Virus record (IMG/VR): IMGVR_UViG_2802429242_000007
Reading direction: 5' to 3' (one strand)
Length of the DNA: 9,683 nucleotides
DNA from: a virus
Taxonomy: Duplodnaviria > Heunggongvirae > Uroviricota > Caudoviricetes
Under the pieces are notes generated by a model that was given only the letters and a program-made list of their open reading frames with translations, ran no database searches and was not told where the DNA came from. The translations under genes and the position numbers were made by a program. How positions within the stretch are numbered: the stretch's first letter is position 1; the number at the start of each line of letters is the position of its first letter. Positions 1,537-6,888 of the stretch are shown piece after piece.

Positions 1537-1614
1537 TTACCTCTAAGGTAATTAAAAACCACATAAGACACGAAATCAATAGATCTAAGAATATTTTGTT
1601 ACCCATTAGGTAAC
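1537..1614 (-). promoter_or_regulatory. promoter-operator cassette for the distal leftward operon: operator sites 1537-1551 and 1598-1614 flanking a sigma70-like promoter
   Basis: Perfect inverted repeats TTACC-tctaa-GGTAA (1537-1551) and GTTACC-catta-GGTAAC (1598-1614), starts 62 bp apart. On the minus strand, -35 TTGATT (1579..1574), 17-bp spacer, -10 TTTAAT (1556..1551); the downstream operator abuts the -10. Confidence 0.6.
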
Positions 1615-3464: not shown

Positions 3465-3544
3465 GGTAAGCCCTGTTATTAGTATTGGGATTACGGTTAT
3501 TTTGTGCTGACACAAAAAAAAGATCAACCATATTTGGTTTTTTA

Positions 3545-3559
3545 TTACCTTTGAGGTAC
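3545..3559. promoter_or_regulatory. operator-like site (TTACC-tttga-GGTAc) between the terminator and the zinc-finger gene
   Basis: A 9/10 match to the TTACC-N5-GGTAA motif. On the minus strand it lies just upstream of a possible promoter (-35 TTGATC, 17-bp spacer, -10 CAAAAT). Confidence 0.4.
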
Positions 3560-3565
3560 GAATAG

Positions 3566-3593
3566 ATATGAAAAGACCGCCGGATGGCGGTCT
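3566..3593 (-). terminator. intrinsic terminator downstream of the Cro-like gene (tR1-like position)
   Basis: On the minus strand, 21 nt after the stop: AGACCGCC-atcc-GGCGGTCT (perfect 8-bp GC-rich stem, plus 3574-3593) followed by TTTTCATAT. Confidence 0.6.
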
Positions 3594-3614
3594 ACAGAGG
3601 GTTGTGGCTGGATA

Positions 3615-3845
3615 TCATGAGTAGAAGAAGTATGCCAGTTCTGCTTTTGAGCGCAGCCATTGTCTTGTTTTACAGGCTTTAAAAAGCCCATTCATCAATA
3701 CCTTACCTGGCATTTTGCGCTTACCTGTTAAGTGAGTCTGGATATAGTGACTCGTCGTTCCGGCTTCCTGTGCGAAGGCTTCACGCTCATCCGGAGTAAG
3801 TGCAAGCCAGTGCTTTTTGAAATCGAAATGTCCGTTATCGCTCAT
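3615..3845 (-). CDS. Cro/CII-like small HTH DNA-binding regulator, 76 aa
   Basis: First gene of the leftward operon, divergent from the repressor. An HTH-like segment (REAFAQEAGTTSHYIQTHLTGKRKMPGKVL) is visible. Functional role is inferred from position. Confidence 0.6.
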   Translation of the reverse strand: MSDNGHFDFKKHWLALTPDEREAFAQEAGTTSHYIQTHLTGKRKMPGKVLMNGLFKACKTRQWLRSKAELAYFFYS

Positions 3846-3870
3846 AGCTATTGCCTGATATTTATTTCAG

Positions 3871-3944
3871 ATAATAAATATTCACCTATAAGGTAACAAA
3901 AATCAAGGATAGTTACCCACGAGGTGCATTTACCTGTTGGGTAA
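3871..3944. promoter_or_regulatory. divergent control region: three operator sites plus a leftward PR-like promoter
   Basis: Sites TcACC-tataa-GGTAA (3882-3896), TTACC-cacga-GGTgc (3913-3927) and TTACC-tgttg-GGTAA (3930-3944). Leftward promoter on the minus strand: -35 TTGTTA (3899..3894), 17-bp spacer, -10 TATTAT (3876..3871), overlapping the first site. A weaker rightward promoter may overlap the third site. Confidence 0.55.
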
Positions 3945-3999
3945 TATTGCTTTAAATTGAATCATCTTCTGATTCAGATATGAGGCGATTTTCCAGAAA

Positions 4000-4584
4000 A
4001 TGAAAAGTATCCAGGACGTCCGCAGGCAAAATCTCAACGACTTGATCGACCGTGAATTCAATGGTGTTCAGACGCGGATGGCTGAAAAACTTGGAACTCA
4101 GGCAAATCTGGTAAACCGCTGGGCTCTTGGCAAGAAGGTTATCGGCGACCAGGTTGCACGAAAAATTGAAGCTGCCGCCAATAAACCCCGTAACTGGCTT
4201 GATATCGATCGCTCGCTTTCTCAGGAAGGTTTTCAGCCTGTCGGCCCAAGCGACATTGGCCAGCTGGCGGCTCACAACCTGGAACGCTGGATGAGCGAAA
4301 GCCGCGACCTTTCAACACAGGGAAAACTTCACCGCGCATCCGGCGTAGCCCAGGTGACAATCAGCCGCCTGTTAAACAATGAGGTCAGCGTTTCCATTTC
4401 CACCCTGGAGAATGTTGCATCCGCATTCGGGCGTCACGGCTATGAATTACTGATTCACCCGCACGACCCTGCGACCATCAACTATGATCGCTCGCGCTAC
4501 GCATTGTTACCCGAAACCGAGAAAGCAAAGATCGAAAGTTACATTGAATTTGTCATCAACCAGAACGAAAAAAACAAACAATAA
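4000..4584 (+). CDS. CI-like immunity repressor with two XRE-type HTH domains and no S24 peptidase domain, 194 aa
   Basis: Two HTH-like segments: QTRMAEKLGTQANLVNRWALGKKVIGDQVARKIEAAANKPRNWL and LSTQGKLHRASGVAQVTISRLLNNEVSVSISTLENVASAFGRHGYEL. No Ala-Gly/Ser...Lys autocleavage module is visible. Divergent from the Cro-like gene and flanked by operator clusters. Confidence 0.7.
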   Translation: MKSIQDVRRQNLNDLIDREFNGVQTRMAEKLGTQANLVNRWALGKKVIGDQVARKIEAAANKPRNWLDIDRSLSQEGFQPVGPSDIGQLAAHNLERWMSESRDLSTQGKLHRASGVAQVTISRLLNNEVSVSISTLENVASAFGRHGYELLIHPHDPATINYDRSRYALLPETEKAKIESYIEFVINQNEKNKQ

Positions 4585-4604
4585 AACCATATTTTTCAGT
4601 AAGT

Positions 4605-4630
4605 AAGCCGCCTTATGGCGGCTTTTTTAT
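4605..4630 (+). terminator. intrinsic terminator after the repressor gene
   Basis: AAGCCGCC-ttat-GGCGGCTT (8-bp stem) followed by TTTTTTAT, 20 nt after the stop. Confidence 0.7.
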
Positions 4631-4640
4631 TGCCTATTCG

Positions 4641-4718
4641 ATTACCTAACGGGTAATTTTTTTAACTCATATCTATTGACATCAAACCATATACGCATAA
4701 TTATTACCTCAACGGTAA
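4641..4718 (+). promoter_or_regulatory. promoter-operator cassette (PL-like) for the rightward operon: operator sites 4641-4657 and 4704-4718 flanking a sigma70-like promoter
   Basis: ATTACC-taacg-GGTAAT (4641-4657) and TTACC-tcaac-GGTAA (4704-4718), starts 62 bp apart. -35 TTGACA (4676-4681), 17-bp spacer, -10 AATTAT (4699-4704). The geometry matches the 1537-1614 cassette exactly. Confidence 0.6.
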
Positions 4719-4737
4719 CAGACCGAGGTAACAAGTT

Positions 4738-4890
4738 ATGCAGTGGAAAATCATCAACGGTTGGTACTGCGTTACTGCATGCGGATTCATGAGCTGGAAG
4801 TTCCGCACCTTACAGGAAGGCATTAAGTGGGCTTTCGTCAGCAAAGAAGCTCGCGATGTGGCCAACGATAACGAGATATGGGAGGGCTGA
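4738..4890 (+). CDS. small Trp/Cys-rich protein, 50 aa, first gene of the rightward operon
   Basis: ATG 4738 with GAGGT 8 nt upstream; MQWKIINGWYCVTACGFMSWKFRTLQEGIKWAFVSKEARDVANDNEIWEG. Not in the ORF track, probably because of a length cutoff. The stop lies within the next gene's ribosome-binding region. Confidence 0.45.
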   Translation: MQWKIINGWYCVTACGFMSWKFRTLQEGIKWAFVSKEARDVANDNEIWEG

Positions 4891-4892
4891 TA

Positions 4893-5192
4893 ATGAACGT
4901 TAATCAGCAGAAAAATCTTCAAAAAATCATGCTGGCATTCGACAAGGACTACCGCCTGTCAGAACAGCTATATGACCGACAAGTTGAACTGATTGAGAGC
5001 ATCCGACTTCATCAACTGTCCTCAACTTTCGACGTTGTAACAGGCAAAGGCGTTCGTCAGGAAGTACTGGAGGCTGCTAAAGACAGCCCTGAGTTCGAAG
5101 AACTGATGGATGCCTATCGGCGAGAGGCAATGGCAATTATCGCCCGCTGGGATCTGGCTGATCAGCTTGATGGGCAGAGGGACGCGGCATGA
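4893..5192 (+). CDS. hypothetical phage early protein, 99 aa
   Basis: ATG 4893 with GGAGGG 6 nt upstream (the track's start at 4878 is less likely); stop overlaps the exonuclease ATG (ATGA at 5189-5192). Confidence 0.6.
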   Translation: MNVNQQKNLQKIMLAFDKDYRLSEQLYDRQVELIESIRLHQLSSTFDVVTGKGVRQEVLEAAKDSPEFEELMDAYRREAMAIIARWDLADQLDGQRDAA

Positions 5193-6010
5193 AACCGGGA
5201 ATTTATTTCGACATCAGCAACGAAGACTACCACGCCGGTGACGGCGTGAGTAAGTCGCAACTGGACATGGTTGCCAAGAATCCGGCGCTTCTTAAATGGG
5301 TTCAGGCAGCACCAGAAGACGAAGAGAAAAAGTCTGCACTGGATATGGGAACCGCATTGCACTGCCTGCTTCTGGAACCTGGAGAATTCGACAAACGCTT
5401 CATCGTTTCACCGAAATTCGATCGTCGGACGAAACAAGGTAAAGCTGACGAAGAGGCATTTCTTCGTGATGTGGCGGATATGGGGATTACGGTACTTGAT
5501 GCCGAGCAGTGGCGGAAACTGGAGCTGATGCGTGATAGCGCAATGGCTCACCCGGCGGCACGCTGGATGCTGGAAGCCCCTGGTTACTGCGAAGCATCAA
5601 TGTACTGGAACGATGAAGATACGGGTGAGTTGTGCCGCATTCGTCCAGACAAATGGCTGAACGAGCACAACGTGATCGTCGACGTGAAAAAGGTTGCAGA
5701 TATGGACCGTTTTGCACGCCACATCGAGGAATTCCGCTACCACGTGCAGGACGCAATGTACCGCGAAGGCGCAATGAGGGTTACTGGTCAGCCGCATGGT
5801 TTTTTCTTTCTTGCCGTGAGCGAAAGCATTGATTGTGGTCGATATCCGGTACGCGTGTTCGAGCTGGATGCGCCGGATGTCGATGCCGGGCACGCTCTGT
5901 TCCGCCGGGATCTGAATACCTATCACGAATGCCGCATCAACGATGAGTGGGGCGGAGTGGAAATTATTAAACGCCATGACTGGGCACGTAAACAGGATAT
6001 GTACGTATGA
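5189..6010 (+). CDS. PD-(D/E)XK exonuclease of the RecE (exodeoxyribonuclease VIII) C-terminal-domain type, 273 aa
   Basis: N-terminus MKPGIYFDISNEDYHAGDGVSKSQL and an internal D...VDVKK motif fit the RecE-type nuclease domain as I recall it; ATGA-coupled to the downstream annealing protein, as in recE-recT. Confidence 0.7.
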   Translation: MKPGIYFDISNEDYHAGDGVSKSQLDMVAKNPALLKWVQAAPEDEEKKSALDMGTALHCLLLEPGEFDKRFIVSPKFDRRTKQGKADEEAFLRDVADMGITVLDAEQWRKLELMRDSAMAHPAARWMLEAPGYCEASMYWNDEDTGELCRIRPDKWLNEHNVIVDVKKVADMDRFARHIEEFRYHVQDAMYREGAMRVTGQPHGFFFLAVSESIDCGRYPVRVFELDAPDVDAGHALFRRDLNTYHECRINDEWGGVEIIKRHDWARKQDMYV

Positions 6011-6888
6011 GCAATGATATCGCAATCACATCACAACCAGGCGCAACTGTAGGTACTGCTGCGGCAATCTTCAGCCCGGAGGGCATGAATCAACTGGTGC
6101 GTTTCGCGGAGTTGATGTCACAAAGCAAAGCGACTGTACCGAAACATCTTGAAGGCAAACCTGCCGATTGTCTGGCGGTGACCATGCAGGCGGCACAGTG
6201 GGGAATGAACCCTTTCGCCGTGGCGCAGAAAACGCATGTGGTAAACGGAACGTTAGGCTACGAAGCACAGTTGGTAAACGCGGTCGTATCCTCTTCCAGC
6301 CTGCTAGCGACACGCCTGAATTATCGCTGGAGCGGTGACTGGTCGAATGTTAACGGCAAAACAGATAAATCACCGAATCTGACGGTAACTGTGTCAGCAG
6401 TTCTTAAAGGAGAAGCAGAACCCCGTGAGCTTACCATCAGTATGGCGCAAGCCGGAGTGCGTAACTCTCCATTGTGGGAACAGGATCCGCGCCAGCAACT
6501 TGCCTATCTTTGCACGAAACGATGGGCTCGCCTGCACGCTCCTGATGTACTTCTCGGTGTTTACACCCCAGACGAATTACAGGAAACGGCACCGCGCGTT
6601 GAGCGAGACATTACTCCGCAAACGACTACTGCTGCGGGAATGAACAGTCTGATCAACGCTAAACCAGCGAAAAAGCATGATGAGCAAACGCGTAAAGCGG
6701 ATAGCCGTGATCCAGAAGAAATGCTGATGGCCTTTACCAGCGCAGCGATGAATTACAGCACTGTCTCCGAACTGGATAAGGCTTACAAATACATTGCACA
6801 AAAACTTTCAGATGATGACGAACTGCTGGCAAAAGCCACCGACGTTTACAGCGTTCGTCGGGAAGAATTAAACGAAACATCTATGTAA
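6007..6888 (+). CDS. RecT/Red-beta family single-strand annealing protein, 293 aa
   Basis: Core ...CLAVTMQAAQWGMNPFAVAQKTHVVNG... resembles the RecT/Bet conserved region, and an ERDITP motif is shared with my recollection of lambda Bet. Sits immediately after the exonuclease with an ATGA overlap. Confidence 0.75.
   Translation: MSNDIAITSQPGATVGTAAAIFSPEGMNQLVRFAELMSQSKATVPKHLEGKPADCLAVTMQAAQWGMNPFAVAQKTHVVNGTLGYEAQLVNAVVSSSSLLATRLNYRWSGDWSNVNGKTDKSPNLTVTVSAVLKGEAEPRELTISMAQAGVRNSPLWEQDPRQQLAYLCTKRWARLHAPDVLLGVYTPDELQETAPRVERDITPQTTTAAGMNSLINAKPAKKHDEQTRKADSRDPEEMLMAFTSAAMNYSTVSELDKAYKYIAQKLSDDDELLAKATDVYSVRREELNETSM

Follow-up and report, generated by a model that had tools for sequence, protein, structure and literature searches.

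Immunity repressor of a phiV10-type Escherichia coli prophage: two helix-turn-helix folds, no S24 peptidase domain and probable release by a LexA-controlled antirepressor

The closest precedent for the repressor described here is Rep of Salmonella phage SPC32H, a member of the same genus, Uetakevirus, which comprises epsilon15-like temperate podoviruses. The primary studies of the SPC32H mechanism are said to be those of Kim and Ryu in J Virol in 2013 and of Kim et al. in PNAS in 2016. In their 2013 study, Kim and Ryu reportedly found that SPC32H Rep stays uncleaved in the SOS response, that the antirepressor gene ant is under LexA repression and that a single base change in the LexA box renders the sister phage SPC32N lytic. 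Lemire et al. are said to have described, in 2011, Gifsy prophage repressors with LexA-controlled antirepressors. The Gifsy repressors, CI/Tum of coliphage 186 and CB/AntC of N15 can be likened to the present system by logic alone (a non-self-cleaving repressor and a distant LexA-repressed antirepressor gene), whereas they differ in how the antirepressor folds and acts; according to the SPC32H work, Ant attaches to the end of Rep that serves oligomerisation and does not simply cover the DNA-binding surface. Lambda CI and LexA resemble the present repressor in the N-terminal XRE-type helix-turn-helix (HTH), the divergent rep/cro arrangement and the multiple operators in an OL/OR-like layout. 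In contrast to them, the present repressor has no S24 domain and no cleavage site, and appears to use another oligomerisation module.

Structures have been solved for SPC32H Rep alone (PDB 5D4Z) and for Rep bound to the antirepressor Ant (5D50). According to one study, only the N-terminal HTH of SPC32H Rep is the DNA-binding domain; dimerisation falls to the middle domain (MDD), and tetramer formation and Ant binding to the C-terminal one (CAD, 'TetDloop') (PMC9986798). In a second source, Rep is described as occupying palindromic sites in tetrameric form; Ant, itself a tetramer, holds two Rep dimers and splits the Rep tetramer (PMC9638917). A recent preprint describes Ant as pushing Rep into a non-functional conformation (bioRxiv 2025.11.27.690993).

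The DNA analysed here is a 9,683-nt stretch of a Caudoviricetes virus (IMG/VR record IMGVR_UViG_2802429242_000007; hereafter the window), in which a 194-aa immunity repressor gene, rep, had been noticed (Table 1). It encodes the immunity repressor of an E. coli prophage of the phiV10/epsilon15 type (Uetakevirus) that adjoins guaA. Its product is 100% identical, without any difference, to ORF21 of phage vB_EcoP_ZX5 and to phiV10 p40, which has for years carried the annotation 'putative transcriptional repressor; two helix-turn-helix motifs'. It is also 42% identical to the epsilon15 repressor gp38; in the epsilon15 record, 5D50 is cited and operator sites are marked. The rep region (window 3500-5200) shares 97-99% identity with Escherichia phage phiV10 and related phages of the genus Uetakevirus, and 100% with a prophage located between yfgI and guaA in E. 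coli N1131; positions prefixed L002 below refer to a 46-kb stretch of N1131 carrying that prophage. Of 5426 complete E. coli genomes, 562 (~10%) contained related DNA.

The gene order of the window follows that of phiV10, with integrase, methylase, PerC-like, AlpA-like, recT and recE-like genes and two small ORFs leading to rep. Divergent from rep, again as in phiV10, are the cro-like gene, a small ORF, a DnaT-like O gene, a P gene and nin-like genes, and the cro-like gene occupies the position of epsilon15 gp39 and SPC32H_042. The likeness to SPC32H covers genus, gene order and full-length homology of both Rep (42%) and Ant (88%). As a separate observation, the recE-like nuclease and recT (window 5189-6888) are two ORFs with a 4-bp overlap, and the phiV10 record has one fused recET.

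Published experiments bear on the same sequence. Phage ZX5 integrates at the guaA 3' end, and overexpression of its ORF21 left no free phage, with endolysin and holin transcripts down by 99.97-99.99% (PMC9782041). Lysogens of phiV10nluc gave a ~10-fold higher titre after mitomycin C (PMC5021930), and a DNA-damaging microcin brought about a 21- to 47-fold induction of prophages belonging to the Uetakevirus phiV10 species (bioRxiv 10.64898/2026.05.26.727859). Under control by a LexA-repressed antirepressor, one would expect just such a response to DNA damage in the absence of an S24 domain. The system was already known genetically (2013), structurally (2016) and, for the sequence of the window, functionally (2022).

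Table 1. Features of the repressor, its operators and the antirepressor region. Positions are those of the window unless prefixed L002 (46-kb E. coli N1131 stretch with prophage) or given as residues.
Feature	Position	Strand	Remarks
rep, immunity repressor, 194 aa	4000..4584	+	ATG-start ORF; Pfam, PHROG, PDB, AF2 and Foldseek
Rep N-terminal HTH DNA-binding domain (putative)	~residues 1-70		Naming after PMC9986798
Rep linker	residues 71-82		Low confidence at 60-82 in AF2 model
Rep middle HTH_3-like dimerisation domain (putative)	~residues 83-151		Naming after PMC9986798
Rep C-terminal tetramerisation and Ant-binding module (putative)	~residues 152-194		Assigned via homology to SPC32H Rep, PMC9986798
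cro-like gene, 76 aa	3615..3845	-	PHROG_35 'transcriptional repressor', E=5.6e-13; divergent from rep
Promoter-like site, cro direction	3899-3871	-	
Candidate operator TCACCTATAAGGTAA	3882..3896		In spacer/-35 of candidate rightward (cro-direction) promoter; position kept in five Uetakeviruses
Candidate operator TTACCCACGAGGTGC	3913..3927		2 mismatches to palindrome
Candidate operator TTACCTGTTGGGTAA	3930..3944		Overlaps -35 of candidate rep promoter
Candidate rep promoter, TTTACC/TTACCT, 17 nt, TAAATT	ends at 3958	+	Inferred from alignment
Intrinsic terminator 3' of rep	4605..4634	+	Also annotated as terminator in phiV10
Candidate distal operator of pL-like promoter, TTACCTAACGGGTAA	4642..4656		Motif search
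pL-like early-left promoter (candidate), TTGACA-17-AATTAT	4676..4704	+	10/12 consensus matches; drives recE-like/recT operon from 4738
Candidate proximal operator of pL-like promoter, TTACCTCAACGGTAA	4704..4718		Abuts -10; 62 bp from distal operator
Second candidate operator pair, 62-bp spacing	1537-1551 and 1599-1613		Brackets candidate promoter after P gene
Candidate promoter, TTGATT-17-TTTAAT	within 1537..1613	-	Upstream of DUF1064 gene; read by eye
ant, 85 aa	L002:11182-11439		Between tail genes and tail-fibre gene
Predicted LexA box CTGTATATTTATACAG, near-consensus	L002:11145-11160		22 nt upstream of ant ATG
Weak terminator	L002:11579-11592		
Bro-N protein with C-terminal Ant-like domain	L002:11752-12438		Beside ant, outside window

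The domain architecture of Rep was determined computationally. An initial annotation, made from the sequence, had read two XRE-type HTH segments in the 194-aa ORF, and Pfam, PHROG and the AlphaFold2 model agree on both. The Pfam family HTH_3 matches two stretches of the protein (E=1.2e-9; 38.5 bits, where the gathering threshold is 23), the better one at residues 106-147, and HTH_26 is a further Pfam match. Residues 21-61 resemble a YdaS/Cro-like HTH family at E=3e-4, under the Pfam cut-off, and both halves of the protein are matched by PHROG repressor and regulator families. The AlphaFold2 model (29 homologues, mean pLDDT 78) contains two separate helical HTH bundles, a four-helix bundle at residues 4-59 and a five-helix HTH_3-type bundle at 83-151, followed by a long C-terminal helix at 164-193; confidence is low at residues 152-163, within the C-terminal module. 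An internal duplication as the source of the two folds was rejected: a BLASTP comparison of residues 1-80 with 81-194 returned nothing at E<=100, and the two folds are therefore not recent repeats.

In phmmer searches of the PDB, Rep matched chain 5D50_A ('Repressor') over its full length (E=4e-42, residues 1-190) and the 5D4Z fragment, which covers SPC32H Rep 92-198, over residues 89-190 (E=4e-20). Overall, Rep and its SPC32H counterpart are 41.8% identical; the N-terminal domains share 54% and the C-terminal modules 44%, and the value falls to 30% in the middle domain, where the two proteins have diverged most. Foldseek against the PDB likewise placed 5D50 and 5D4Z first, followed by XRE-type HTH proteins; the few other matches (Stl repressors and phosphonate-pathway enzymes) were made via the HTH domain only. 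The earlier description of a 'tandem HTH' protein thus holds for the two folds, but not for two DNA-binding domains, since the second corresponds to the dimerisation domain of SPC32H Rep.

The same analyses bear out the reported absence of the LexA/CI S24 module. Peptidase_S24 had no Pfam match in Rep at E<=1, no S24 peptidase was among the Foldseek matches of the model in the PDB, and all 86 homologue clusters likewise lack an S24 domain. The protein contains neither an Ala-Gly nor a Cys-Gly dipeptide, and no cysteine. Only ~43 residues lie C-terminal to the second HTH, and an S24 domain therefore cannot fit there.

The initial annotation had expected an antirepressor encoded elsewhere or another inactivation route, and had proposed looking for small LexA-box-controlled genes in the rest of the prophage. 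A gene of this kind, ant, is located ~27 kb from rep in the N1131 prophage and outside the window. The encoded Ant is 88% identical to SPC32H Ant, and the corresponding phiV10 protein p24, annotated as 'hypothetical', matches 5D50_E ('Anti-repressor protein') at E=3.8e-46. Directly 5' of the N1131 gene is tACTGTATATTTATACAGtt, a predicted near-consensus LexA box, and CTGT-N8-ACAG lies 22 nt before the ant ATG in all five genomes compared (the N1131 prophage, phiV10, SPC32H, epsilon15 and ZX5), so that the box has a matching position in SPC32H. Homologues of Rep and Ant were found in the same 35 phage records. The expectation of an antirepressor encoded elsewhere is thereby supported by a gene with a predicted LexA box in the matching prophage, and such a switch has been demonstrated experimentally for the homologous Rep/Ant pair of SPC32H. 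The Gifsy prophages, which had been named as the precedent, have the same type of switch, but SPC32H is the closer one.

Within the window itself, tblastn detected no homologue of Ant or Bro (best E>1), in agreement with the earlier remark that no antirepressor candidate is visible there. The sole A/T-rich CTG-N10-CAG element of the window, CTGATATTTATTTCAG at 3857-3872 in the rep-cro spacer, was rejected as a LexA box. Although kept in phiV10 and Tyrion, it does not conform to the CTGT...ACAG core and has no counterpart in SPC32H or epsilon15, and was judged a chance occurrence.

These comparisons make it very probable that the window encodes an SPC32H-family Rep of a phiV10-type Uetakevirus that is operator-bound and is released by LexA-controlled Ant. 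In the proposed mechanism, the N-terminal HTH of Rep would bind 15-bp TTACC-N5-GGTAA palindromes, the middle HTH-like domain would dimerise the protein and the C-terminal module would assemble tetramers. Putative operators lie between rep and cro and, in pairs 62 bp apart, on either side of two promoters, the early-left one and one that follows the replication genes; further copies precede most other phage transcription units. Upon DNA damage, Rep would remain uncleaved, and RecA-activated cleavage of host LexA would derepress ant. Ant would then bind the C-terminal part of Rep, break the DNA-binding tetramer and free the operators. Tetramerisation, Ant binding and non-cleavage are extrapolated to the Rep of the window from SPC32H Rep at 42% identity. 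Taken with this precedent, rep is almost certainly switched off by the small LexA-controlled antirepressor encoded 27 kb away.

Across Uetakeviruses of E. coli, Salmonella and Enterobacter, Ant is 84-88% identical, and the Reps fall to 42% (44% in the C-terminal module). The ligand is thus far better conserved than its target, a pattern that hints at possible cross-induction between related prophages.

A different physiological inducer, acting instead of or besides small Ant, could be the Bro-N protein encoded next to ant, a reading that we consider unlikely. Residues 147-224 of this protein share 40% identity with Ant (E=8e-16), and the fusion gene is present in the prophage of the window but absent from SPC32H. 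The ZX5 orthologue, ORF4, is 82% identical overall and identical across the C-terminal 132 aligned positions. Overexpression of ORF4 reduced prophage numbers ~1000-fold, and it is this Bro-N protein, not small Ant, that is called the 'anti-repressor' in the ZX5 study (PMC9782041). Moreover, 3' of ant and ahead of the Bro-N::Ant-like gene, a promoter-like TTGCAA-17-TATATT directly adjoins the perfect operator TTACCTTTGCGGTAA (L002:11443-11485). However, SPC32H and epsilon15 use Ant and lack such a gene, the phiV10 Bro protein has a truncated Ant-like segment only, and no LexA box precedes the Bro-N gene. If it were controlled by Rep, its product could amplify induction but not start it.

The small LexA-controlled Ant is thus preferred as the trigger, and the promoter-like site with its perfect Rep operator suggests that the Bro-N::Ant-like gene may be under Rep control, which would create positive feedback. 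A two-stage circuit can be imagined in which LexA-controlled Ant triggers induction and the Rep-operator-controlled Bro-N::Ant-like fusion locks it in by feedback. Separately, Ant might act in trans on the Reps of other Uetakevirus prophages, in the manner of Gifsy; we regard both ideas as speculative and rather doubtful. Beside the Bro-N gene, the moron region contains a YafO-family toxin gene (L002:12739-13284), and a Rep-type palindrome is present upstream of it (L002:12510-12524).

The operator layout was obtained by a motif search for the 15-bp palindrome TTACC-N5-GGTAA. With up to two mismatches, the window contains 10 occurrences against 2.65 expected, a number reached in 0 of 200 shuffles; with up to one mismatch, the 46-kb N1131 stretch contains 19 against 0.93 expected. 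The half-sites TTACC/GGTAA, the three rep-cro sites and the pairs 62 bp apart are shared with SPC32H, whereas the operator centres are less A/T-rich in the window. In both 62-bp pairs (4642-4718 and 1537-1613), the distal operator lies upstream of the -35 and the proximal one abuts the -10. Operator positions and the spacing of the pairs are kept in phiV10, SPC32H and epsilon15, the layout being conserved across five phages, and the epsilon15 GenBank record annotates the corresponding sites, at coinciding positions, as 'repressor' binding sites. A promoter scan found nothing at 1537-1613, where TTGATT-17-TTTAAT breaks the rule of the scan that requires A at position 2. The 62-bp pairs fit a single Rep tetramer gripping both sites.

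Outside these groups, a near-perfect operator palindrome, ATACCTTTAAGGTAA, is located at L002:43819-33 between int and guaA, ~43 bp beyond the integrase end of the window. It is placed identically in phiV10, SPC32H and epsilon15, and may reflect control of int by Rep or form part of attP.

The operators also bear on the question of which HTH contacts DNA. Rep could act as a single-chain pseudo-dimer in which both HTH domains bind DNA, one half-site per HTH, and the second domain is indeed the better Pfam HTH_3 match (residues 106-147) and was taken by the ZX5 authors as the DNA-binding part. This is nevertheless very unlikely, as the middle domain of SPC32H Rep is described as a dimerisation domain (PMC9986798). 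The operators are, moreover, symmetric with identical half-sites, yet the two HTH domains have no detectable mutual similarity. The candidate recognition helix NLVNRW in the N-terminal domain is kept between the phiV10-type and SPC32H Reps, which share the same half-site, and the middle domain is only 30% identical. The identical symmetric half-sites and the conserved NLVNRW fit binding by pairs of N-terminal domains, in line with the preferred SPC32H-like organisation.

Inactivation of Rep by RecA-stimulated self-cleavage through a cryptic, non-S24 route is scarcely credible: we found nothing in its support, the DNA-damage inducibility of phiV10-type prophages being equally explained by LexA-controlled Ant, and the protein has no S24 match, no Ala-Gly or Cys-Gly and no space for a peptidase domain, while SPC32H Rep reportedly, from the 2013 work of Kim and Ryu, is uncleaved in the SOS response. 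The initial suggestion that induction does not proceed by RecA-stimulated self-cleavage therefore very probably holds, in agreement with the homologous SPC32H Rep/Ant pair. An equally implausible reading, that the protein is an XRE-family antitoxin or accessory regulator and not an immunity repressor, could draw on the generic HTH annotations in RefSeq and on a 'VapI antidote' label in PP488543.1, but is opposed by the classic immunity region (three operators separate the gene from a divergent cro-like gene, beyond which the replication genes follow), by the lack of an adjacent toxin gene and by homology to an experimentally proven repressor.

The value of these results lies mostly in the correct annotation of the rep/ant pair. 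RefSeq labels rep as 'helix-turn-helix domain-containing protein' and ant as 'hypothetical protein'. Once Rep and Ant are recognised, these common guaA-integrated prophages can be read as SOS-inducible via LexA and Ant, not via repressor cleavage.

Translation of rep from a leaderless or weakly led mRNA had also been proposed, with a Shine-Dalgarno (SD)-like GAGG 14 nt upstream of the start codon as the nearest candidate. The GAGG was confirmed at 3982-3985, 14 nt before the ATG; its anti-SD pairing energy is -5.6 kcal/mol, and its spacing is non-functional. Alignment of the rep-cro spacers of five Uetakeviruses contained no conserved SD-like element 5-12 nt from the rep ATG; therefore, judging from this alignment, the lack of an SD before rep is a genus-wide trait. 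The start codon itself can be assigned with confidence, since all 29 aligned homologues begin with MKSI, which identifies the ATG at 4000 and rules out an alternative start.

In leaderless mRNAs of the type produced for lambda cI from P_RM, the -10 lies ~7 nt upstream of the start codon and transcription starts at the ATG. The five-phage alignment showed no conserved -10 adjoining the rep ATG. Instead, a conserved TTTACC/TTACCT-17-TAAATT shares sequence with the rep-proximal operator and has its 3' end 41 nt before the ATG. If this element is the maintenance promoter, the rep mRNA would have a leader of ~34 nt without an SD and would not be leaderless. The missing SD is thus real and shared by five phages, whereas a leaderless form would not be supported by this candidate promoter. 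A seven-codon upstream ORF (MRRFSRK, 3980-4003), whose stop overlaps the rep start (ATGA), was considered as a translational-coupling device and rejected, as it is not conserved in Tyrion or other phages.

Finally, iteron-like tandem repeats were observed at 2812-2950, inside the DnaT-like O gene. They consist of a 24-bp unit repeated 2.6 times (100% identity), an 18-bp unit repeated 3.1 times and a 12-bp unit repeated 2.4 times, and the 24-bp unit holds the short inverted repeat ATCCC..GGGAT. These repeats are probably the replication origin, as in lambda.
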